64,000 bases of DNA, taken from IMG/VR virus record IMGVR_UViG_3300042504_002519, positions 1 through 64,000 of that record; one strand, 5' to 3'. The notes below the pieces were generated by a model, which was not told where the DNA came from, made no database searches, and saw nothing but the letters and a program-made list of their open reading frames with translations. This DNA is from a virus. Position numbers and translations under genes: made by a program. This document shows, piece after piece, positions 2,202-32,931 of the stretch. The first letter of the stretch is position 1. Each line of letters begins with the position of its first letter.

Positions 2202-2881
2202 ACTGGACTCCCACGCTAGTGGGGATACTTGGCGACGTAGGATCCACCCCCACGAATGTGTGGGTCAAGGGCTGTCAGGATCTACCCCCACCGCAGTGGG
2301 GAACGCTAGCTGAGCCAGGGTGAAAAACTCCCACGATGGCGGGTAAGTTCCTGGACGGACTCCCACGGAGTGGGTTGATTTGTGTAGAGACAGACTCCCA
2401 CGGGGTGGGATAAGCGGGAACTATCGGAAAAACTCCCACCGAAGTGGGGAAGAAATACCTGAGCTAGGGCGACAGACTCCCACAATGGTGGGGCTAGTAG
2501 GCCCGGGCAATGGCAGACAGACTCCCACGGGGGTGGGGTGCATGAGTTAACCGCAAATTGACAGACCCCCACTTCGGTGGGGTGCGGGAACTGTCCCTGA
2601 TCGACAGACCCCCACCGGGGTGGGGCTAGCTGGCCTGAGGAAAGGGACAAACCCCCACCGAAATGGGGAGGTGGTTGCCAGGGCCTAGCCCATGTGCCTG
2701 CGGGCGTCGTAAGATCCACTCCCACCGAGTGGGGAGGTGTTTGCGAGAGCCGGGTACTAAGCCGGTAGCTAGGCCTTCTCACGAAAAACCCCCACCCTGG
2801 TGGGATGTGCTTTGCGAGAGCTAGTAAGCCACCAATTCTGCCCAGATCTTCACTAGAAGCACCCCCACCGAAGTGGGATCC
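2202..2881 (-). CRISPR. CRISPR array A (about 15 degenerate type I-E-like repeats; 3 long spacers, then short units)
   Basis: Repeat core CCCCAC-N4-GTGGGG/A-GTNNNTC; periods 73,70,67 then 43,43,44,45,44,38,35,32,43,38,39. Confidence 0.9.
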
Positions 2882-2923
2882 ACTTACCACCAAGTTGTCA
2901 ATGTCCTGGCAGCAGTATAGCAC
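2882..2923 (-). promoter_or_regulatory. Array A leader (extended -10 plus boxA-like motif)
   Basis: GTGCTATACT..CAGGACATTGACAACTTGGTGGTAAGTGG, conserved in all four array leaders. Confidence 0.8.
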
Positions 2924-2947
2924 ATTGCTGGCCAGAGCCGCACAAGC

Positions 2948-3290: not shown

Positions 3291-4109
3291 CTACCCCGCC
3301 ACAACCCATTCCTTCCACGCCAGCGGGCTAGCCTGGTTCAGGATCATGCCCGATACCCTGACAGGCCCCGTCAGATCGAACTCGGCTAGGCCTTTGGTTA
3401 GATGGCGCAGGCTGGCCCGGCCAAGGGACCATGGATCGACCAGGGTGCATTTCACCCCAGCAGCCACCACGATCCCGTCAGGGAACGCCTGGAGTCGCCG
3501 CCATGGCCACATGAGGTATTGCACCAGATCGGGGTTGTCAGCGTCCAGCGTCTCGGCGTAGTCGATGGGGCGCTTCCACCAGGGCACCCAGGACGATGCC
3601 GGCGCCGCATTGAGTTCCAGGAAGTCCGCTAGGGTATCGCCCCACTTCCAGGCCACCAGCTGGCCCATGTGGCTGGGCTTAGGCCCGCTGATCGGCAGGC
3701 CTTTTACCTGGGCCTTGAGCCCGGGCCTATCGCAGAAGTAGGCGGTGACTAGCGCCTTGATCAGGTCGGCCTCGGTTGGGCTGGCCAGGAAGTTGCGGGG
3801 CACCAGGGCAGGGCCGGAACCATCCATCAGGTCCATGATCGCCTGCGGGCTACGGATGGAGGCCTCAGGCAGGCCTGTTACCTGCAGGAATCCTGGCTCG
3901 CCCCAGTTGTTCCACAGCGGCATATCGCCTGGCAATGGCTGGTTTTTCATAGTGACGCTGGCCATAGCCAGCAGCAGGCGTAGGAACGCCTGGCGGGTGA
4001 GGTGGCCTTCGCTGATGTCGGTGTAGGCTTCAGGGCTGGCCAGTAGGTCGGCCAGGCTGGCGGTGCCCTGGGGGGTGGCAATGCAGGGGTAAGTAAAGAT
4101 GTCGGCCAT
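3291..4109 (-). CDS. cas8e: Truncated Cas8e (Cse1/CasA)-like large subunit, 272 aa
   Basis: Probable start MADIFTYPCI with GGAG RBS; Cse1-like motifs SLADLL, AFLRLLLA, FLQV, GDTLADFLELN, PWW, YLMWPWRRL, DPW; about half normal length. Confidence 0.75.
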   Translation of the reverse strand: MADIFTYPCIATPQGTASLADLLASPEAYTDISEGHLTRQAFLRLLLAMASVTMKNQPLPGDMPLWNNWGEPGFLQVTGLPEASIRSPQAIMDLMDGSGPALVPRNFLASPTEADLIKALVTAYFCDRPGLKAQVKGLPISGPKPSHMGQLVAWKWGDTLADFLELNAAPASSWVPWWKRPIDYAETLDADNPDLVQYLMWPWRRLQAFPDGIVVAAGVKCTLVDPWSLGRASLRHLTKGLAEFDLTGPVRVSGMILNQASPLAWKEWVVAG

Positions 4110-4178
4110 GTGGTTCTCCAGATAACGAAAAAGTGTTACTATCCAATTGTAAGCCATTAGTTGGGTTGCGAGCCGCAG

Positions 4179-4823
4179 ATGAATTTCCCACATGATGTTG
4201 TCAGAGATGCCTGGGCCGTCCGCCATGGTGGCCGCACCGAGGTGTCCGTAGGCCAGGACCGCATTGATATCGTTGTTGATGGCGACCAGTACGACACGCT
4301 GGTGGAGGTAAAGCCTGCCCACCAGGTGCGGGAGGCCATCGGCCAGGCCAATAGCTACCAGAGACGCTGGACTCGGCCCAGCAAAAAGCACTTGCTGCTA
4401 TTTCATGAGACTGGCCTACCGGCTAAGTCTACGGTGGAGCGCCTACGGACCCACCAAGCCTCCGGTGAGTTGTCCAGCTTCACATGGGAGATAGTGCCAG
4501 CGGTGCCCCGGCCTAGCTACCACATTGCTGGGGTGCCGATCAGCTTTGAGCGGGCTAAGGCAGATATTTGCGGCCATGTGGCCCGCATCAAGCGCAGTTT
4601 CCAGGATGGCCCTATTGCCGCCAACGATAGGGCTTTCCTGCACTACCTAATTGTCGGCGGCCAACGCCAGGCCCAGGGCGCCCAGCTAGCCTGGGGCGAC
4701 AAGGGTATTGAGCTGCAGGTAGTGCGGTTCGACAACAACGTGTTTGGCTTGTCTGCCCGATCCGCTGCGGTGGACTGGCTCAGACAGGCTAACTACAAAG
4801 CTGTTTACGGAGGATCACGATAA
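4179..4823 (+). CDS. PD-(D/E)xK nuclease with a C-terminal DCL/DUF3223-like domain, first gene of the cas operon
   Basis: E..RIDIV..LVEVK..AIGQANSY motif; stop overlaps the cas6 start (TAATG). Confidence 0.7.
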   Translation: MNFPHDVVRDAWAVRHGGRTEVSVGQDRIDIVVDGDQYDTLVEVKPAHQVREAIGQANSYQRRWTRPSKKHLLLFHETGLPAKSTVERLRTHQASGELSSFTWEIVPAVPRPSYHIAGVPISFERAKADICGHVARIKRSFQDGPIAANDRAFLHYLIVGGQRQAQGAQLAWGDKGIELQVVRFDNNVFGLSARSAAVDWLRQANYKAVYGGSR

Positions 4824-5506
4824 TGCTGTATTTGTCACGTTTTGCCCGGCCAGATGGCCATGGTAGCCTGCACCGCTATGTGATGGCGGGTTTTCCGGAT
4901 GATCTGGGCCCAGACCCCCGCAAGCAAGCTGGGGTGTTGTTTCGGGTTCAAGTCAATCGGGAGCCGGATTTTTTCGCTGCTGAAAATGACAATGAGTTGA
5001 TTGATAAGCGCGAATGCGCTGAAGGCGGATCCATTCTGGTGCAGTCAACCATGAAGCCGAAATGGCCAAAAAGCTATGAAGCTGAAGTGAAGCTGGAATT
5101 TAAGCCTAGCCTGCTAAAGGCGGAAAAGCGCTACCGGTTTCGTTTTGGTCTAAATTCCGTTGCCCAAAGTAACCGAGATGGCCGGTGCCGGCGTTATCCG
5201 GTGCCTGTTAGCCAATGGCTGGCGGCCAGGGAAGAAATGCTGGGCGCTACTTTTGACATTCGCAAAGTGGAGTCCATGGTTCTTTACGACCATGTAAGGC
5301 GAGAGCATTACACTCGTTCATTCCCCATTCATGTGTCGGTGATCGACGGATATTTACGTGTCACTGATCCCATCAAGCTGGCTCAGGCCATCCGCGAGGG
5401 CATTGGCCGGGAGAAGGCCTACGGCTGCGGGCTGCTGTCCTTGCTGCCGGTGGTGGCGGTGACTCCCGCGCCGTCGCCTGCCCTGGTGGGTGTGGCTCAA
5501 ACCTGA
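4823..5506 (+). CDS. cas6e: Type I-E crRNA endoribonuclease Cas6e (Cse3)
   Basis: MLYLSR start, LHRYV..FP, ILVQS, YRFR, G-loop GIGREKAYGCGLL. Confidence 0.93.
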   Translation: MLYLSRFARPDGHGSLHRYVMAGFPDDLGPDPRKQAGVLFRVQVNREPDFFAAENDNELIDKRECAEGGSILVQSTMKPKWPKSYEAEVKLEFKPSLLKAEKRYRFRFGLNSVAQSNRDGRCRRYPVPVSQWLAAREEMLGATFDIRKVESMVLYDHVRREHYTRSFPIHVSVIDGYLRVTDPIKLAQAIREGIGREKAYGCGLLSLLPVVAVTPAPSPALVGVAQT

Positions 5507-5509
5507 GCA

Positions 5510-5573
5510 GTGGCCCCACTCCGGTGGGCGTGGATCGACAACCAAAAAGGCCCCACAGGCGTGGGGGTGGCCA
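5510..5573 (+). CRISPR. Two repeat units inside the cas6-cas7 intergenic region
   Basis: CCCCACTCCGGTGGGCGTGGATC and CCCCACAGGCGTGGGGGTGGCC, period 37. Confidence 0.8.
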
Positions 5574-5602
5574 CCAGGCCCAGTCCTTAAGGGAGGAACC
5601 TT

Positions 5603-6838
5603 ATGTTTATCGAACTGCACCTGATCCATGCCTTGCCGCCCAGCAATGCCAACCGGGACAAGTCCGGGGCACCCAAAAAGATCCAATACGGTGGTAGCTG
5701 GCGGGCCCGGCTCTCCAGCCAGTCCCAGAAGCGGGCCGCCCGGCAGCACTACGAGCAATGGATGGCGGTTGACCGCAAGGCCTTAGCCTTTCGCAGCCGT
5801 CGCCATGACGTTGCCCTGGCTACCCGCCTAGCTTTCGGCGATGACGATGACAACCTGATGGTGGCCCGGTTCCTGCTGGGCTTATTCAACCTCAAGAACG
5901 ACAACCTGATCCCGGCCATGCTGGAGGAGCCCAGCAACTTGCTGTTCCTCTCAGAGCATGAGCTAGACACCATCGCCGCCATTGCCGCCGACTACCCGAT
6001 CTTGTTGCAGGACATGCTGGAGCGGGCCCAGCGTTATCGGGCAGCGTTGGATCCAAAGCCCAAGAAAGCGCCTGAGGCTGAGCATCCATCCGCCAGGGAT
6101 CTGCAAGGTATCCGCAAGGCCCTAGCCCAGCTAGGTCAGCAAGTGCCCGGTAGCGTGGCCCTGTTTGGCCGGATGATGGCCAGCCTGACTGAGGCCAGCG
6201 TCGATGGCTGCACCCAGGTGGCGGATGCCATCTCGGTTAATTCCTTTGGTATCACCAATGTCAAGGGCATGGGCCAAGTGATTGGCGAGCCAGACTTTTT
6301 CACCGCCGAGGATGATGTCGCTCCGATGGATGAAGAGGCTAAGGCTGGGGCGGGCCACCTGGGGGAGCTGCCTATCGTCTCGCCTGTGTACTACCGCTAT
6401 GCCAACCTCAATGTCACTGAACTAGCCTGCTTGGTTGGTGACCCTGGGCTGGCCCAACAGTTTGCCCGGGGATTCTTGACGGCATTCTGCGCTACCCTGC
6501 CCACCGGCTATATCCGCAGCCATGCCCACCTAACCCTGCCTGACTATGTGCAGATTAGCTGTACTGCTGCTCAGCCTTACACCTTGGCACCGGCATTCCA
6601 TGTGTCAATCAATAGCTGCACCACCGACGACGACTTCCTAGCCCAGGGTATCCCGCACCAGGCCGCTGATGCGCTGCGCCAGTACCAGGACCGGCTAAAC
6701 GTCATCTACGGCGACAAGTCGCTGTACAAAGCTGAAGTGACTACCCAGCCAGGCTGGTTCGGCCAGCCCCTGGACGGGGCCATTGATGGGGCCCTGCAAG
6801 TAGCCATGGGTGCTGGCAAGGAGGTGGCCTATGCCTAG
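5603..6838 (+). CDS. cas7e: Type I-E backbone subunit Cas7e (Cse4/CasC)
   Basis: MFIELHLIHALPPSNANRD.SGAPK..YGG..RARLSSQSQKRA, ALFGRM, DFFTA.DD, GAGHLG, YYRYANLN, LPTG. Confidence 0.95.
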   Translation: MFIELHLIHALPPSNANRDKSGAPKKIQYGGSWRARLSSQSQKRAARQHYEQWMAVDRKALAFRSRRHDVALATRLAFGDDDDNLMVARFLLGLFNLKNDNLIPAMLEEPSNLLFLSEHELDTIAAIAADYPILLQDMLERAQRYRAALDPKPKKAPEAEHPSARDLQGIRKALAQLGQQVPGSVALFGRMMASLTEASVDGCTQVADAISVNSFGITNVKGMGQVIGEPDFFTAEDDVAPMDEEAKAGAGHLGELPIVSPVYYRYANLNVTELACLVGDPGLAQQFARGFLTAFCATLPTGYIRSHAHLTLPDYVQISCTAAQPYTLAPAFHVSINSCTTDDDFLAQGIPHQAADALRQYQDRLNVIYGDKSLYKAEVTTQPGWFGQPLDGAIDGALQVAMGAGKEVAYA

Positions 6839-7277
6839 GCTAGTCCTGAAGCTAGCAGGCCCCATGGCTGCCTATGGCACCGGGCCACGGCTGCAGCAAC
6901 GACTGACGGAGGATGCCCCAACTGAGTCGGCGATCCGCGGCATGTTGTGTGCTGCCCTGGGGATACGTCGAGGCCAGTCAGCGCCGGAACTGGACGGGCT
7001 GCAGGTGGAGATAGGCGAGACAAGCCATGGCGGAGTGTTGGAGGACTTCCACACCATCCGCGATGCTATCACCTATGACGGGGCCCCAGGCCGCAATGCC
7101 ATCACCACCCGGCACTACCTGAGCGACTTCAGTTCCACCGTTACCCTGCGGGGTGACTTGCAGCAGATCCGCACCATTGCCAAGGCGCTGGCCCGGCCCA
7201 AGTTCCAGCTATACCTGGGACGCCGTAACTGTGTCCCAACTGGCCCGATCTGGGCTGTTGCCCGGGAGGAAGTTTAG
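6831..7277 (+). CDS. cas5e: Short Cas5e (CasD), 148 aa
   Basis: LVLKLAGPMAAYG, PTESAIRGMLCAALG, DFHT, RHYLSD, LYLGRRNCVP; lacks the usual C-terminal part. Confidence 0.92.
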   Translation: MPRLVLKLAGPMAAYGTGPRLQQRLTEDAPTESAIRGMLCAALGIRRGQSAPELDGLQVEIGETSHGGVLEDFHTIRDAITYDGAPGRNAITTRHYLSDFSSTVTLRGDLQQIRTIAKALARPKFQLYLGRRNCVPTGPIWAVAREEV

Positions 7278-7278
7278 C

Positions 7279-7426
7279 CGGTTCCCCACACTGGTGGGAG
7301 TAGTTCGTGTACTGCTTTAGCTCCCCACTGCGGTGGAGGTGGATCCAATATTTATAACAGGCCCCACCAGCGTGGGAGTGGATCCTATGTCAGTATCCCC
7401 TACTTCCCACCTGGTGGGAGTGTGCC
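7279..7426 (+). CRISPR. Leaderless mini-array of 4 repeats directly after the cas5 stop
   Basis: Hairpin cores at 7284, 7323, 7362, 7405 (periods 39, 39, 43). Confidence 0.85.
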
Positions 7427-8377: not shown

Positions 8378-8423
8378 GTGCTATAGTGGTGGCAGGAACC
8401 TTGACAACTTGGTGGTAGGTGAC
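8378..8423 (+). promoter_or_regulatory. Array B leader
   Basis: GTGCTATAGT..CAGGAACCTTGACAACTTGGTGGTAGGTG. Confidence 0.8.
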
Positions 8424-8838
8424 GGTGGACCCACTTCGGTGGGGGTTTCTCCTTCGCTCCCCCCACGGTGGCCACTATTCGGCCTAAGCAAAACACACCC
8501 CACTTCGGTGGGGGTTTCTCGCTTAGTGGCATTGCCCATCTTTAGCGCTGGCCTCGCAAAGCACACCCCACTCCGGTGGGGGTTGATCTACGGCCATCGA
8601 CAACGATCAGGCCATGCCTATCTCGCAAAGCAGGCCCCACCTCGGTGGGGGTTTCTCGGTCTGTGGCGTGTCGTGGTGGATGGTCTGCCTAACGTGACTC
8701 GCAAACACCTCCCCACTCCGGTGGGGGTTATTCGTGGGCCTACCTCTCCATCGTAAACGGCGGTTTCGCCATCCCCACTTCGGTGGGCGTTCTTCCAGCC
8801 CGTACCTCTCCTATACCCCACCCCTGTGGGAGTTTTCG
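8424..8838 (+). CRISPR. CRISPR array B (7 repeats)
   Basis: 36-nt repeat CTCGCAAAGCACACCCCACTCCGGTGGGGGTTTCTC variants; periods 69,68,69,76,62,about 43. Confidence 0.9.
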
Positions 8839-9764: not shown

Positions 9765-10457
9765 TCAGGGTGCCCAGTACCCTTGTTCCCCATGCTCGAA
9801 ACGAGCACTTCTAGCGGCGGTGAAAGCCTGGAGCAGTGGGCCAGCAAGAGGATCTATGTCGATATTGACTGAGGCAGAATCTACTATGTCTGATCCCGCA
9901 TGGCTTTTTAAGTCATACACTCCCGGCCAACATTCGTGACATAGCCAAAAATTTTCGTTTTCAAGCATTCCAATCATCCACCCTCTATGCCGCCAAGTAG
10001 GATAAACACTTTCTTCTTTGCAGTTAAATTGTGGAGGAGTATGCAGAAAAGCGCTTATATCATACTTGACGCGATCTGGGTTTAATCTGTATCCATTCAG
10101 CCTGTAAACGCAATTCTCATCTTCGGTGAAGTCTATCCAGGGCTGGCTCTGGATAAGCAATACCTTTTGACGGGAAACTTCTGCTAGTCTATTGCAAAGA
10201 ACCCACGCAGAATCGCCATTCTGCTTTGATTCGCCATTGCTATTAAACGTCGGGGACGCGACTAGCTTGGGCTTTATTTCTACCCATGCCTGCCAATCCT
10301 CGATCCAAAAGTCTGGAAGATACCAGTCCCCATCAAGGTTGAACCCTTCGGGCTCATAGGTCCAGTTCAGCCCCAGGGCATCAAAAAACACAGCCCACCG
10401 AGCCTCTAGCCTGGAGCGGAACCGGTAGCCACGGAACTCGGTTGTTATTGCTTGCAT
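9765..10457 (-). CDS. Phage PD-(D/E)xK-type putative nuclease
   Basis: FRSRLEARWAVFFD, YLPDFW, VEIKP. Confidence 0.7.
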   Translation of the reverse strand: MQAITTEFRGYRFRSRLEARWAVFFDALGLNWTYEPEGFNLDGDWYLPDFWIEDWQAWVEIKPKLVASPTFNSNGESKQNGDSAWVLCNRLAEVSRQKVLLIQSQPWIDFTEDENCVYRLNGYRLNPDRVKYDISAFLHTPPQFNCKEESVYPTWRHRGWMIGMLENENFWLCHECWPGVYDLKSHAGSDIVDSASVNIDIDPLAGPLLQAFTAARSARFEHGEQGYWAP

Positions 10458-10539
10458 AGCTTTATGGTTCTCCGTTGTGCAGTCTTGTATCCGGGCGGAC
10501 CGCCCATGGTGATCGCACCACCACAGGCTTGCTACTGGC

Positions 10540-10932
10540 CTAGAGGCCTTTTTCCTGAGCGACCTGGATGGCCCGGGCCTTGAGCATGGCTATCAAGGAC
10601 AGGCTAGTGGTGGCTACCTCGTTGGGGTCGATGCCATCCAGCACCGCCGTTAGGTAGGGTGCTCCCAAGCGTAGGCCAACGGCGATCTGGGGGCTGTCCT
10701 GGGCCATATCTTGCAACAGGCTGATCAGGTATCCCTTGAGCATCCGTCCCTTGAGGCCCAGGCCATCGAATTTGGCAGAGGCCACATCCACTAGGCTGTT
10801 GACCGCACCGCTGACGCCTGCCGCTGTGCGACTGCTGGCGATGGCGCCCCGCACCCCCTCAGTCAGGGTGGCCTTAAATTCATCGGTACTAACGGCGGTC
10901 TTTAGCAGACCAACCAGGAAAGTTTTGAACAT
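10540..10932 (-). CDS. Hypothetical protein
   Basis: 130-aa ORF with normal composition. Confidence 0.55.
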   Translation of the reverse strand: MFKTFLVGLLKTAVSTDEFKATLTEGVRGAIASSRTAAGVSGAVNSLVDVASAKFDGLGLKGRMLKGYLISLLQDMAQDSPQIAVGLRLGAPYLTAVLDGIDPNEVATTSLSLIAMLKARAIQVAQEKGL

Positions 10933-11085
10933 TTGGATCCCTTGGAAAGCAACAATTGGAAAGCAACTCTGAAACCCAACTTACAGCCGGGTGCTACCAT
11001 GCTAGCATGGCCATACTGGATCCGACTTGACAAGTTAGCCAGTATAGTATAGGGGAACACTGACTATATCGGCTGGTGGGGTGGC

Positions 11086-11676
11086 ATGAGCCGGGAAATA
11101 CGGATCCAAACACAGGAACTATTTGCGCGGCTTAGAACCCAACTAAAAGCCGCCGACTATAGGCGTACCCGTGACACCCTGATCCTGATCAACCTGGGCC
11201 TGGTGGAGAAGATCGCTGGCCGCTATGCCCAGGACGGTGTGGAAGTATTCGATGATTTGGTGCAGGTCGGGGTGATCGGCTTGATCAAGGCGGTGGATCG
11301 CTACAACCCAGCTAAGGGAACTGCCTTTAGCAGCTATGCTGTGCCCTATATCCGGGGTGAGATATTGCACCATCGCCGGGACCGGGCCGGGGCACTCAAG
11401 ATACCTCGTAGCTGGTCGGATCAATTTACCCTGCTGCGCCAGCTCTACGATGAACGGGCCAGCCATGCCGCCATGGCCAGCGCTACCCGGATCCCGATAG
11501 ACCAGATCCCGCAGGCCCTCAATGCCTTGCTACGGCCAGACTGCCTAAGCCTGGATGCACCGCTAGCGGCTGGCTTAACCGACTGCTGGGAGCTACCCGA
11601 TAGCAGGCCACCACCAGAGCCAGACTGGGAACCAGAACCAGTGTACGAGGTGAGCTGCTGGGGGCTGGCACAATAA
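11086..11676 (+). CDS. Phage SigB/SigF/SigG-family RNA polymerase sigma factor (region 4 apparently absent)
   Basis: NLGLVEKIA, DDLVQVGVIGLIKAVDRYNP.KG.AFSSYAVPYIRGEILHH.RD. Confidence 0.9.
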   Translation: MSREIRIQTQELFARLRTQLKAADYRRTRDTLILINLGLVEKIAGRYAQDGVEVFDDLVQVGVIGLIKAVDRYNPAKGTAFSSYAVPYIRGEILHHRRDRAGALKIPRSWSDQFTLLRQLYDERASHAAMASATRIPIDQIPQALNALLRPDCLSLDAPLAAGLTDCWELPDSRPPPEPDWEPEPVYEVSCWGLAQ

Positions 11677-11721
11677 AAAACCCGCCAGGTGGCGGGGTGG
11701 ATCCGGGTAGTCCCGGGGTGA

Positions 11722-11928
11722 CTAGAAGTCGCTAGAAGTTAGGTAATCGTCCTTAATCAGTGGCGCGATTGCGGCCTCTGCCGCCGCCTCGGTGGGGTAA
11801 GTGATCCATAAGTTGGCGTCCCGCTCGCCGAAAAGTGTCTGACAGTCCTCCCATTCGCCGGTTGTTGGCGATACACCAAAAACTCGATAACCGTTGTCTC
11901 GGGGGAACACGCTATAGCGAACAATCAC
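11722..11928 (-). CDS. Hypothetical protein
   Basis: AAGGAG RBS upstream, terminator at about 11675-11697. Confidence 0.55.
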   Translation of the reverse strand: MIVRYSVFPRDNGYRVFGVSPTTGEWEDCQTLFGERDANLWITYPTEAAAEAAIAPLIKDDYLTSSDF

Positions 11929-12009
11929 GGTGGTTACTCCTTAAGTAGGGTGGGTAGGTGCCCTGGGTGGCAGTCCCCAGGGCGGGGTGGTGGGGTAAAT
12001 GGCCAGGGC

Positions 12010-12171
12010 CTAGAGGTCGGCCAGGGTAATGTCCTGGACGGGCTGGGCCTGGATGCTGTCCCAGGCCTCGGGGCCGAAGCCAAAGACTGCCAGGCTGGCC
12101 TGGAGCATGGCCTCGCTGGCCTCCAAGCTGGCCAGGGTAAGGGTGGTGGGGGTGGTGGTGAAGGTGGACAT
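12010..12171 (-). CDS. Small early protein (53 aa, MSTFTTTPTT...; not in ORF track)
   Basis: Translated by hand; lies directly downstream of promoter 12201-12230. Confidence 0.55.
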   Translation of the reverse strand: MSTFTTTPTTLTLASLEASEAMLQASLAVFGFGPEAWDSIQAQPVQDITLADL

Positions 12172-12365
12172 GGGATGTAGTGGTGGTTGACAACAATTTC
12201 AATATACAGGGGGTATATAGGGCTTGTCAATATACCTCAGGTAAATTAGTGGCACAACTACTGGCACAGGCAAAGAATTGATCGGAATGATCAATAACTC
12301 GATCAATAACTGGCAGTAAAAAAACCCCAGCTCATGCCGGGGTAGTTCGTCCTTAAACGTGCCCG

Positions 12366-12388
12366 AAGGCACCCCCACGGTGGTGGGG
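12366..12388 (-). CRISPR. Solitary repeat unit at the 3' end of the leftward replication operon
   Basis: CCCCACCACCGTGGGGGTGCCTT, 11 nt after a stop and upstream of the terminator at about 12317-12342. Confidence 0.6.
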
Positions 12389-12399
12389 TAGCTAGCTAG

Positions 12400-12591
12400 C
12401 TAGAACGGCGGCCCAATACAGTCCAGGTCGTCGGGATCGTCCATGTTCAGGCTGAACAGTCCGCCAGCTTCGTTTGGCTGCACCATAACTGTGCTGCCTA
12501 CTACAGTCTTGACGGTAGCTGCTACCCAGGGCTGGCTCTTGGCTGGGCGGAACATTACGGAGTAGCCGGGGCGTAGGGATAGTCTGCTCAT
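12400..12591 (-). CDS. Hypothetical protein
   Basis: Coupled to ssb stop. Confidence 0.6.
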   Translation of the reverse strand: MSRLSLRPGYSVMFRPAKSQPWVAATVKTVVGSTVMVQPNEAGGLFSLNMDDPDDLDCIGPPF

Positions 12592-13016
12592 TAGAATGGA
12601 ATGTCCTCGTAGGTGGGCTGGCTGGGCTGATCAGGCTGGTCCTGGGGGCGCTCGGTTGATACGGCTGCAGTCGGGGAGTTCCTGACGACTTTGGCCATCT
12701 TCCAGGCCTTGACGATCAGCTTGGAGCGTCGCTTGCCGGTTTCCCGGTCTTGCCAGCTTTCCTCGTCGATCTGGCCTTCGGTGATGGCTACCCGGTCACC
12801 CTTGAGCAGGTTGTCGCCTGCCCATTCAGCGGCACGGCCAAAGCACTTGACGGTGATCCAGGCGGAACGGGCCTCGCCATTCTGGTCTTTGCCGGCGTAG
12901 ACAGCGATCCGCATCTCGCAGATCTTGCCTCCGGTGCTGGTAAACCGTAGTTCGGGGTCGGCGCCAAGGTTGCCGACACATTGGACTGAGTTGTAGGCGT
13001 AGGGTTCTGCAGGCAT
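12591..13016 (-). CDS. ssb: Single-stranded DNA-binding protein
   Basis: GNLGADPELRFT, WQDRETG..RSK, acidic C-terminus EDIPF. Confidence 0.95.
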   Translation of the reverse strand: MPAEPYAYNSVQCVGNLGADPELRFTSTGGKICEMRIAVYAGKDQNGEARSAWITVKCFGRAAEWAGDNLLKGDRVAITEGQIDEESWQDRETGKRRSKLIVKAWKMAKVVRNSPTAAVSTERPQDQPDQPSQPTYEDIPF

Positions 13017-13044
13017 GGTCTTGTCTCCTCTGTAAGTGTGTGGT

Positions 13045-14178
13045 CTATGCTTGTTCCCTGATCTGTACTGGCATCACCAGGTACACTTGGCCGCTGCCGG
13101 GGGCGGTGATCGTGGCTGGGCTGGTGGGGGTATTGGTGTGCAGGATCACCTGTTCACTGCCAAAGGCCCGCAAGCCATCCAGCAGGTAGTCGCCGTTGAA
13201 CGCCATGGGATTCTTGGCTTTGCCTAGCACATCCTCGCCCTGGCCATCGCTAGCCTCGCAGCCAACCAGCTCCCGTCCGCTACTGCCCTCCACGTCAGCC
13301 TCCAGCACTAGCTGGCCCTGGTCATCCCAGCGGTGCCTGATGATGCTGTTTTTCTGGCTGGCCACCACCATGATCCGGCTTAAGGCCTCGATCCAGGCCT
13401 GCCGGTTGATCAGGGTCTCCACCGCAAAGGCCTGGGGGATAAGCCGGCGATACTCTGGATACTGGCCCTCCAGCAGCCGGGTGGTAAATACCAGATCGCC
13501 CAGGTCAAAAGTGGCAATGATATTGTCCAGCGTTATCGTTACCATGCCTTCAGCCTTGGCCAGGTGCTTCCCCAGGGCCTCCAGGCCTTTGCTAGGCAAT
13601 GTGACAGGGGTAAAGGCTTCAACGCCCTCCTGGGCCACGGGAAACACGCTGAGGCGATGGCCATCGGTGGAAGCAACTTCCAGGCCATCGGCAGCGGGCT
13701 GCAGGTGAATGCCACAAAGGATCTGCTTACTCTCGTCATCGCTAGCGGTGACTAGCGTGGACTCTAGGGCCCTGGCCAAGGTGCTAGCCTCCAGGGTAAG
13801 CTGCTGGCCTTCTGCCCGTTCAATGAGTGGGTAGTCCTCCCCGGGCTGGCCGGATAGGCTGTAGCTGCCGCCTAGGGTGTTGATGGTGGCCTGGCTGGTT
13901 TCTGGATCCCAGTTAAGCGCTAGGTTTCCCTGCATCCGGCCCACCATATCGGTGAGTAGCTTGGCAGGTAGCAGGATCTCGCCCTGCACGGCAATGCTGG
14001 CGCTGGCCTTGGCGGTAATGGTCACCGCCCCCAGATCACTGCCCGTCACCGCCAGGGTGTCTCCCTCAGCTTTGAGTAGCAGGTTTGTCAGTACAGGGTT
14101 GCTGGGTCTGCTGGGTACCGCCCGGTTGGGCAGACCCAGGACAGCGGCTAGGTCTTTGGCGTCAATTGTCAGTTGCAT
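13045..14178 (-). CDS. dnaN: DNA polymerase III beta sliding clamp
   Basis: AVPSRPSNPVL, STDGHRL, RLLEGQYPEY, FNGDYLLD, YLVMPV. Confidence 0.95.
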   Translation of the reverse strand: MQLTIDAKDLAAVLGLPNRAVPSRPSNPVLTNLLLKAEGDTLAVTGSDLGAVTITAKASASIAVQGEILLPAKLLTDMVGRMQGNLALNWDPETSQATINTLGGSYSLSGQPGEDYPLIERAEGQQLTLEASTLARALESTLVTASDDESKQILCGIHLQPAADGLEVASTDGHRLSVFPVAQEGVEAFTPVTLPSKGLEALGKHLAKAEGMVTITLDNIIATFDLGDLVFTTRLLEGQYPEYRRLIPQAFAVETLINRQAWIEALSRIMVVASQKNSIIRHRWDDQGQLVLEADVEGSSGRELVGCEASDGQGEDVLGKAKNPMAFNGDYLLDGLRAFGSEQVILHTNTPTSPATITAPGSGQVYLVMPVQIREQA

Positions 14179-22314: not shown

Positions 22315-22356
22315 GTGCTATAGTAAAGGACAGGAACCTTGAAAATTTGGTGGTAA
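22315..22356 (+). promoter_or_regulatory. Array C leader
   Basis: GTGCTATAGT..CAGGAACCTTGAAAATTTGGTGGTAAG. Confidence 0.8.
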
Positions 22357-22863
22357 GTCGACCCACTTTGGTGGGAGTTTTTCAAGGTCTATCGTCAGTC
22401 ACCCCTGCTACCGGCTATACTGGCCTGGATCCCACTTCGGTGGGGGTTTTTCGCACTCAGTCGGTAGCCACTCGCGGCCAGCGCCAAAGCCTACCCCACC
22501 CCAGTGGGGGTTTATCTGGGAGTTTTTCGCCACCCCTGCTACCGGATGATCGAAACCACGCTGGCCTGGATCCCACCCTGGTGGGCGTTTTTCGCTCGAT
22601 AAGGGATCCCCATTTTGGTGGGGGTGTATCCGAAGACTGGCAACGATATGGCCCCACTTCGGTGGGAGTGGTTCTTTCCCCGTGGTTAGCCCCGCGCTGG
22701 TGGGGGTGGCTCTCGCTTTGTGCCCGCCCCACCCTGGTGGGAGTTCGTCCCAACTCTGGTTGTACCCCATCCTGGTGGGGGTTTATCTTGACTATGGCGA
22801 CTCCCCACTGCTGTGGGAGTGTGTCAATCTGCAGTTCGCCCCCCACTCTGGTGGGAGTAAAAC
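22357..22863 (+). CRISPR. CRISPR array C (11 repeats plus one partial)
   Basis: Three long units then periods 37,44,38,37,38,38,38; terminator at 22915-22939. Confidence 0.9.
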
Positions 22864-22961
22864 CCAATTGTAAGCAAATTGCGGTAGACTGGATTTGTTA
22901 GATGCACCACTCCGACCCCGGCCACGGCTGGGGTTTTTTGTTGCCTGGGCATTCTGGATCC

Positions 22962-23585: not shown

Positions 23586-24217
23586 AACCCCCACCGTGGT
23601 GGGGATAGCCTAGCAAGTGAACAACGCCCACAGGGGTGGGGATGGTTTGACGAGGGAGAGACGCCCACGGAGGTGGGGCTGCGTCTTGCAGGCAGGATCA
23701 ACGCCCACCAAAGTGGGGCTGGCTGCAAGGACGAGAGACCCCCACGGTGGTGGGATGTGATGCAGTTCTAGGAAGTACTCCCACCGAAGTGGGGAGGTGT
23801 TTGCGAGGGAGCTATCCACCGCCGCTAGGGTTTCCTTAGCGAGAAACCCCCACCGAAGTGGGGAGGTGTTTGCGAGTTGCCTAGCAGCTCCCCCAGGTTG
23901 GCCTGCTCGAGGAACCCCCACCGAAGTGGGGTGTGCTTGCGAGATGGCTAGGGTGATGGCACCCGACCTAGTAAGGCCAGAGAAACCCCCACCGGAGTGG
24001 GGTGTGCTTTGCGAGGGCCCAGCTGGATACCGTGGCATCGGAGCTATCCACCGAGAAACCCCCACCGGAGTGGGGTGTGCTTTGCGAGGACCGCCAAGCA
24101 ACTTTAAGCAGGTGAAACAAAATGAGGAGAAACCCCCACCGAAGTGGGGAGGTGGTTGCGAGACACGGCGCTGGCCGATAGCCAAAACCACGAAAAACCC
24201 CCACCGGAGTAGGATCC
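23582..24217 (-). CRISPR. CRISPR array D (12 repeats; 6 long spacers, then short units)
   Basis: Two identical 36-nt repeats at 23980 and 24053; periods 65,74,73,71,68,69 then 39,37,40,37,37. Confidence 0.95.
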
Positions 24218-24267
24218 ACCGTCACTTACCACCAAGTTGTCAAGGTTCCTACCTACCACTATAGCAC
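24218..24267 (-). promoter_or_regulatory. Array D leader
   Basis: GTGCTATAGT..AGGAACCTTGACAACTTGGTGGTAAGTGACGGTGG. Confidence 0.8.
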
Positions 24268-24316
24268 GGATCCACCAGCCTGGGCACCCTATAAAAAATT
24301 CTCTGAGGGATCCACC

Positions 24317-32875: not shown

Positions 32876-32931
32876 CTCCCACCATTGTGGGGCCTGCATC
32901 CCCTGGCCGAACCACTCCCACGCATGTGGGC
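32870..32931 (-). CRISPR. Two-repeat mini unit
   Basis: CCCACATGCGTGGGAGTGGTTC and CCCCACAATGGTGGGAGTCAAC, period about 39. Confidence 0.7.

Follow-up and report, generated by a model that had tools for sequence, protein, structure and literature searches.

The element described here is a small CRISPR effector of type I-E encoded by the virus of IMG/VR record IMGVR_UViG_3300042504_002519. That record (G000) is 77,534 bp long and has a CheckV completeness of 69%, and its first 64 kb make up the stretch that was analysed, called the window, to which coordinates refer unless another sequence is named. Five open reading frames (ORFs) between positions 3291 and 7277, all of which were confirmed at the coordinates given in a preliminary description made from the sequence alone, encode 1,272 aa in total. 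A 272-aa Cas8e-like protein is encoded on the minus strand (3291..4109) and is separated by a 69-bp divergent intergenic region (4110..4178), which from a reading of its sequence is the putative promoter region, from an operon of four genes on the plus strand. These encode a 214-aa protein, termed X (4179..4823), a 227-aa Cas6e (4823..5506), a 411-aa Cas7e, or Cse4 (5603..6838), and a short Cas5e of 148 aa (6831..7277), the gene for which overlaps cas7 by 8 nt. A sigma-70 consensus site was looked for in the 69-bp region and none was found. What the locus encodes is a pared-down Cascade of type I-E, borne by a tailed phage, and it is a new Cas3-less variant of that type.

The identities of three of the Cas proteins, which had been called unambiguous by motif, are borne out by profile searches: Cas6e matches PF08798 (E 1e-26) and the PADLOC Cas6e model (E 5e-28), Cas7e matches PF09344 (E 2e-66) and TIGR01869 (183 bits for a cut-off of 178), and Cas5e matches TIGR01868 (E 4e-31). 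The Cas5e match is confined to positions 3-159 of the 230 in that profile, and hhalign equates its residues 1-142 with residues 1-146 of 235 in four canonical cyanobacterial Cas5e proteins (probability 99.8%); the short Cas5e models in PADLOC match the 148-aa protein from end to end. By these alignments, it is a Cas5e that lacks the C-terminal third, some 90 residues of the canonical protein.

The 272-aa ORF has no direct match in Pfam or to another known family. The family to which it belongs consists of proteins of 220-290 aa, several of which, at 41-54% identity, carry the PF09481 Cse1 domain, and a profile built from this family matches the CasA protein of T. thermophilus (E 2.5e-4). Its AlphaFold2 (AF2) model, with a predicted local distance difference test score (pLDDT) of 82, matches 4f3e in Foldseek (E 2e-8), and model residues 1-272 correspond to CasA residues 6-361 with a VIA Z score of 19.9 and a root-mean-square deviation (rmsd) of 3.1 Å over 249 aligned residues. 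Because the full length of the protein aligns to this part of CasA only, the mini-Cas8e is equivalent to the Cse1 N-terminal domain without the four-helix bundle, and its earlier description as a divergently transcribed Cas8e-like gene holds. Neither an additional domain nor an HNH match was found with Pfam in Cas5 (148 aa) or Cas8 (272 aa).

The stop codon of X and the start codon of cas6 have one base in common (TA[A]TG), and the motifs E..D..ExK..QxxxY are present as E21, D30, E43-x-K45 and Q56xxxY60, so that the initial account of this 214-aa protein is accurate on both points. X had been proposed to be a PD-(D/E)xK nuclease, and the model of its structure agrees (AF2, pLDDT 91.8): the core has the order alpha-beta-beta-beta-alpha-beta, and residues 1-109 superpose on the nuclease domain of NucS (2vld) with a VIA Z score of 10.3 and an rmsd of 2.2 Å over 93 aa. 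Other matches of this domain in the same comparison were AF1548 (Z 9.2), Can1 (Z 8.1) and Can2 (Z 8.0), the top Foldseek match of X was SfsA, and in BFVD, a viral library, it came closest to KilA-N proteins, at their nuclease domain (E 9e-7). In an alignment of 13 X sequences, D10, A13, E21, D30, E43, G55 and Q56 are invariant, while K45 and Y60, and with them the full motif set, are present in 12. It can be said with confidence that the N-terminal domain is modelled with a RecB/NucS-like PD-(D/E)xK nuclease fold and is predicted to be catalytic. The original label of a restriction-like nuclease is right as to the nuclease fold; a RecB/NucS/Cas4-like enzyme, with the QxxxY motif, is the better name for it.

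Sequence searches with X gave little. Direct matches in Pfam, NCBIfam, PHROGs and PADLOC were none apart from a sub-threshold match to SfsA (Pfam at E<=1), a sequence-profile search of the PDB found nothing, and the ESM Atlas gave a weak lead to Mrr_cat and nothing else. When X was compared by hhalign with the Cse2 profile, the probability was 0.1%, and no similarity to the Cas5e profile was seen. The alpha/beta domain that makes up the rest of the protein (residues 110-214) has a lone structural match, to the uncharacterised nuclear magnetic resonance structure 2k0m (Z 7.4), which is uninformative.

Only about 12 relatives of full-length X came to light when 1.8 billion representative proteins were searched exhaustively with HMMER. 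In five of eight diverse representatives, the 3' end of the X ORF runs into a repeat hairpin of the kind described below, which places these five in a CRISPR context. The nuclease module by itself is more widespread: genes of about 130 aa occur in 23 of 401 cyanobacterial genomes, with E values down to 1e-16, and in all 23 the match covers positions 3-110 of the X profile only. A KilA-N-like domain is fused to an X-type nuclease module in the protein P0052 and in giant-virus proteins. In the sequences compared, the C-terminal domain of X is thus found only in the Cascade-linked copies. As a separate observation, both of the loci with stand-alone modules that were inspected (L030, 1435-2373, and L031, 929-1782) have the homologue of about 130 aa next to a gene for a Gly/Ala-rich, glycine-zipper-like membrane protein; as read from the sequence, the pair is an uncharacterised two-gene cassette without a Pfam family.

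The preliminary description had noted that cas3, cas11, cas1 and cas2 are missing from the window. In the whole of the 77,534-bp record, the profiles for Cas1 (PF01867), the cas3 core (TIGR01587), the Cas3 HD domain (PF18019), Cse2 (PF09485) and full Cse1 were unmatched at E<=10. In two related phage genomes, G001 and G002, the profiles for Cas1, for the cas3 core and Cas3 HD (E<=1 to 10) and for Cse2 (E<=10) were likewise unmatched; Cas2 profiles were not searched separately. G002 is 74 kb long and has an exact terminal repeat of 127 bp, and it is therefore a complete genome, so the lineage contains at least one complete genome in which Cas1, Cas3 and Cse2 are not found. The claim consequently extends, for cas1, cas3 and cas11 by profile, from the window to the record and to a complete relative. 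A type I-E CRISPR-associated transposon of the Tn7-like kind was considered and rejected: there are no Tn7 genes nearby and TnsA is outside the 50 best VIA matches of X, Tns profiles not having been searched genome-wide.

The connection between X and the Cascade genes was followed through homologous loci. X accompanies the mini-Cascade in six of seven distinct loci (eight of nine metagenomic and viral sequences), which upholds the predicted co-occurrence for all but the one locus (L006) discussed below. The arrangement, with cas8 divergent from X-cas6-cas7-cas5, is kept in L001, L002, L007, L008, L009, L011, L012 and L013, across which the identity of Cas8 falls from 93% to 39%. The ratio of nonsynonymous to synonymous substitution rates (dN/dS) of X is 0.13-0.17, and those of cas7 and cas8 are in the same range.

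The cas genes are surrounded by four arrays with near-identical, conserved leaders. In the window, 43 copies of the hairpin of the repeat, CCCACnnnnGTGGG, were counted as against 0.18 expected by chance, and the whole repeat, of about 37 nt, is made up of 13 conserved nt, the 16-nt hairpin and an 8-nt handle, GTTTCTCG. In canonical type I-E systems the repeat measures roughly 29 nt and includes a GC stem-loop, and the 5' handle has 8 nt. No Rfam family, including CRISPR-DR, was matched in the window. Array A (2210-2877, or 2210..2930 with its leader) is on the minus strand and has three long units followed by short units of 38-45 nt; array B (8430-8830, with leader 8380..8830) is on the plus strand and has long spacers of 25-39 nt; array C (22362-22855, with leader 22318..22875) is on the plus strand and contains the spacer C3; and array D (23590-24213, with leader 23590..24285) is on the minus strand and has six long units with a period of 65-74 nt and then short ones of 37-40 nt. 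The arrays are thus two-tiered, the units near the leader having spacers of 25-40 nt and the distal ones periods of 37-45 nt, and many units have only 13-21 nt between handle and hairpin.

When the spacers were compared with G000, G001 and G002, a protospacer was found only for C3 and, weakly, for C1, too few to yield a protospacer-adjacent motif. C3 matches an adjacent gene for an SbcD-like exonuclease, at 26 of 28 nt in G001 and at 25 of 28 nt in the phage's own copy; as a sequence match, it points to the targeting of related phages. The three genomes have a common array layout and long spacers that are almost all different, and contigs from lake metagenomes carry variants of array B in which units are skipped or replaced. 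These two observations indicate that spacers turn over despite the fact that no Cas1 was found in the phage.

Repeat hairpins also occur outside the arrays. On the plus strand, two solitary hairpins lie between cas6 and cas7 (5514..5566) and three, 39 nt apart, lie directly 3' of cas5 (7284..7377); others follow immediately after genes at 1028-1102, 12374-12387 and 32878-32930. In L013 and P0044-P0048, the ORFs of X and cas6 run into such hairpins and so acquire tails of the form '..VGVCR'. Judging from the positions of these hairpins, Cas6e may cut phage mRNAs at them. Another short element, CCAATTGTAAGC, a 12-nt stretch directly beyond the final handle in array C (22864-22875), is identical to positions 4143-4154 in the middle of the cas8/X intergenic region, and from this identity it could be a CreR-like guide for autoregulation.

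Structural genes in the record encode a tail sheath, a portal, a head protease, a tape-measure protein and an endolysin-like protein, and there is a gene for a tyrosine integrase and a replication block comprising a single-stranded DNA-binding protein (SSB), a beta clamp, a DNA methylase and an SNF2-like helicase. The presence of these three groups of genes identifies the virus as a temperate tailed phage. The genes around the cas locus itself encode a ribbon-helix-helix (RHH) protein, an FtsK/TrwB-like ATPase, the tyrosine integrase, a sigma factor, SSB, the beta clamp, the methylase and the helicase. Adjoining the integrase gene, on the minus strand, a 230-aa ORF (9765-10457) contains another motif that resembles PD-(D/E)xK (YLPDFW...VEIKP) and is unmatched in Pfam and PADLOC.

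The relatives of the phage come from lake-water metagenomes, and 22 runs of lake-water metagenomes hold at least half of the sampled words of the locus; the virus is a lake phage, probably with a cyanobacterial host. Among the deposited phage genomes of INPHARED, array D was unmatched and Cas7e had only remote matches, at 26-30% identity. Contigs from a lake metatranscriptome (two runs of one study), at 98-100% identity, correspond to cas7-cas5 (6399-7270), to part of cas6 (5172-5413) and to the distal part of array A (2393-2572). X and cas8 are uncovered in these contigs, in which gaps prove nothing and DNA carry-over is possible; they are a weak hint that cas7-cas5, cas6 and distal array A are expressed in nature.

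How might such a system work? By homology with known Cascades, array transcripts would be cut by Cas6e at the base of the hairpin, the 8-nt handle would be capped by the short Cas5e, the guide would be coated by Cas7e, and the N-terminal domain of Cas8e would sit at the foot of the complex and read the protospacer-adjacent motif. Neither Cas11 nor the helical 'belly' of Cas8 nor Cas3 was found. X would be co-translated with Cas6e and would bring a predicted catalytic module together with the C-terminal domain; the latter might dock X on the target-bound complex, where the displaced strand or the target DNA would be cut locally. X would in this way replace Cas3 in trans, in a manner comparable to that of the fused HNH domain of the Cas5-HNH Cascade, and the likely use would be conflict between related phages, given the spacer that hits the related phage's allele of a phage gene. 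On sequence and modelling grounds, the proposal that the mini-Cascade binds the DNA of related phages and that X is the nuclease effector, cleaving locally in trans, is favoured tentatively, at a little under an even chance. The fuller proposal would make the locus an RNA-guided DNA cutter of five proteins and about 4 kb, in which X is recruited via an adaptor domain not seen before; phages would use the system against related phages, and its arrays would gain spacers without a phage-encoded Cas1-Cas2. This is possible, although we would bet against all of it being correct.

Several observations weigh against X as the effector. The locus L006, on contig CAVYAN010000048 of a cyanobacterial metagenome-assembled genome (MAG; 9947-13080), encodes a Cas8 of 36% identity and has the order cas8-cas6-cas7-cas5 without X; its genes are co-directional and are followed by an array of their own, and around them are genes of a phage-like kind, with a DNA methylase and a 3'-phosphoadenosine 5'-phosphosulfate (PAPS)-reductase-like protein as their products. 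The X profile was unmatched among the scored candidates of this 5-Mb MAG, and L006 therefore implies that a mini-Cascade need not be accompanied by X. In L013, the ExK of X has lost its K and the QxxxY its Y, and the two loci together indicate that X is not an obligatory, always-catalytic part of the core; of the suggestion that a compact Cascade uses this nuclease instead of Cas3, the reduction is well founded and the nuclease as a constant catalytic component is not. X also diverges faster than its neighbours (the X of L009 has 25% identity, the Cas proteins 35-58%), and its nuclease module is mobile, being found elsewhere alone or fused to KilA-N, which makes a selfish insertion possible. 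Fusions of Cas proteins to X were sought among proteins of 467-2000 aa and none was found, although this is weak evidence. The X-Cascade link, which is plausible, is drawn from gene context, conservation and fold only.

One explanation that takes these observations at face value is that the mini-Cascade only binds, as a silencer resembling CRISPR interference (CRISPRi) and directed at rival phages, the host or its own promoter, while X has an accessory role at DNA ends or in recombination, for example, in DNA processing during recombination between phages. Besides L006 and the loss of two motif residues in L013, it would account for the many units of 13-21 nt, which are too short for canonical interference and could serve regulation, and for the 12-nt guide that matches the cas8/X intergenic region; moreover, type IV-A, which is nuclease-free, works in plasmid competition (PMC11656645, PMC11519345). 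It fits less well with the retention of every catalytic motif by 12 of 13 homologues under purifying selection, with the translational coupling of X to cas6 in a position kept over deep divergence, and with the restriction of the C-terminal domain to Cascade-linked copies, and it is regarded as rather unlikely, if a serious contender. A second explanation is that X is a mobile nuclease, either selfish or of use in its own right (homing-endonuclease-like or anti-host), that has lodged in the cas operon of one lineage and has no tie to Cascade. The stand-alone genes and KilA-N fusions already mentioned, the absence of X from L006 and its status as the fastest-diverging protein of the operon are as expected from this. 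So is the comparison of the window (4179-7277) with L008, in which Cas7 and Cas5 are 99% and 97% identical and X and Cas6 86% and 78%, with synonymous divergence (dS) of 0.06-0.15 for Cas7 and Cas5 versus about 0.6 for X and Cas6: this mosaic indicates recombination within the operon, and X and cas6 have had a different history from cas7-cas5. Yet a mere lodger would hardly be expected to have a constant position and orientation from 93% to 39% Cas8 identity, a one-base stop/start overlap with cas6, a dN/dS equal to that of the cas genes and an extra domain restricted to the Cascade context, which makes this account improbable.

Two other explanations call on the host. X could be a Cas4-like processor of prespacers that loads the phage arrays together with a host integrase module in trans. 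Its motif set, QxxxY included, is of the RecB/Cas4 type, one stand-alone homologue matches Cas4b weakly (E 4e-4), the long spacers of close relatives differ almost completely and array variants occur in lake populations even though no Cas1 was found in the phage, and type IV-A3 is a known case of spacers being acquired in trans (bioRxiv 10.1101/2023.06.23.546257). Cas4 itself was rejected as an identity for X, which has a single cysteine and so cannot form the four-cysteine Fe-S cluster, and with no Cas1 found in the phage, X located in the effector operon, type I-E rare in cyanobacteria (Cas7e is present in only 5 of the 401 sampled genomes) and this repeat missing there, a role in spacer processing is very improbable. 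Alternatively, the phage Cascade could borrow the type I-E Cas3 of its host, X being irrelevant to cutting. Canonical I-E Cascade does recruit Cas3 via Cas8e, the N-terminal domain of which the phage retains, but it has neither the helical bundle of Cas8 nor, so far as was found, Cas11, and in the four cyanobacterial genomes with a canonical I-E Cas7e the phage repeat was at control level only. Since type I-E is rare in cyanobacteria and the phage repeat is not above control there, a borrowed host Cas3 is unlikely, and this is the explanation to which the least credence is given.

The nearest published counterparts are Cas5-HNH and Cas8-HNH, the Cas3-less systems to which the preliminary description had pointed, and Cas11-VRR. 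Altae-Tran (2023) reported Cas5-HNH from type I-E and Cas8-HNH from type I-F, most examples of both being without Cas3, found that in indel formation by Cas5-HNH Cas11 was dispensable with activity reduced, and reported, without characterising it there, a VRR-NUC PD-(D/E)xK domain fused to Cas11 (Cse2) in type I-E (PMC10910872). For E. coli, PMC12235044 describes Cas11 as redundant for silencing and plasmid interference. There is therefore precedent both for a small nuclease in the place of Cas3 and for activity in the absence of Cas11.

The Cas5-HNH Cascade (PMC10910872; structures 8yb6 and 8zlu, PMC11794572) resembles the phage system in being derived from I-E and mostly Cas3-less, in having a small nuclease for local cutting instead of Cas3 (as is proposed here), and in an altered C-terminal part of Cas5e; in structure, the Cse1 of this Cascade is one of those that the mini-Cas8 matches best (Z 17.7-18.4). 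It differs in that HNH is fused to Cas5 and that Cas11 and a full-length Cas8e are kept, whereas here the PD-(D/E)xK protein is separate, Cas5 is truncated, the Cas8 bundle is lost and Cas11 was not found. Cas11-VRR likewise has a PD-(D/E)xK nuclease at the small-subunit position of an I-E effector operon, but X has no Cse2 part (no match to PF09485) and no VRR-NUC match, is smaller by about 100 aa and ends in an alpha/beta domain; the two are set apart by profiles and published description, the published protein itself not having been compared directly. The type I-F Cas8-HNH (PMC11459484, PMC11480323) is also a Cas3-less type I effector in which an added nuclease cuts precisely, but it has an I-F backbone and carries its HNH as an insertion within Cas8. 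Type IV-A and other Cas3-less systems derived from type I (PMC11656645, PMC11519345) are similarly borne by mobile elements without an adaptation module or Cas3, take part in conflicts between elements and acquire spacers in trans; they have other Cas7, Cas5 and Cas8 families and DinG rather than a nuclease, in contrast to the I-E families of the phage. As for X alone, the nuclease domains of NucS/EndoMS, RecB/Cas4 and Can1/Can2/Card1 have the same fold and the same E..D..ExK..QxxxY set, from which X differs in having neither the Cas4 cysteine cluster nor the NucS N-terminal domain nor a detected CARF domain, at about 10% identity.

The architecture had not been recognised as a described subtype, and no description of it was found in the literature searched either. 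Without precedent in that literature are a RecB/NucS-like nuclease that is a protein by itself and brings an adaptor-like domain, the joint disappearance of Cas11, of the bundle of Cas8 and of the C-terminus of Cas5, and the phage setting with four two-tier arrays. What is new is only the stand-alone form of the nuclease and the degree of reduction; the idea of replacing Cas3 is not.

Should X be the effector, no type I system found before would have recruited a stand-alone PD-(D/E)xK nuclease rather than Cas3 or a fused HNH, and no known I-E Cascade would be as reduced as this one, which is left with half of Cas8, two thirds of Cas5 and no Cas11. It would then bear on the minimal architecture for R-loop formation, on the swapping of effector nucleases in the evolution of CRISPR systems and on whether genome editors of type I can be made that are compact and precise in their cutting. 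The turnover of spacers in phages in which no adaptation genes were found is a problem in itself. In ecological terms, the system is abundant in lake-water metagenomes, and related phages appear to use it as a weapon against one another.

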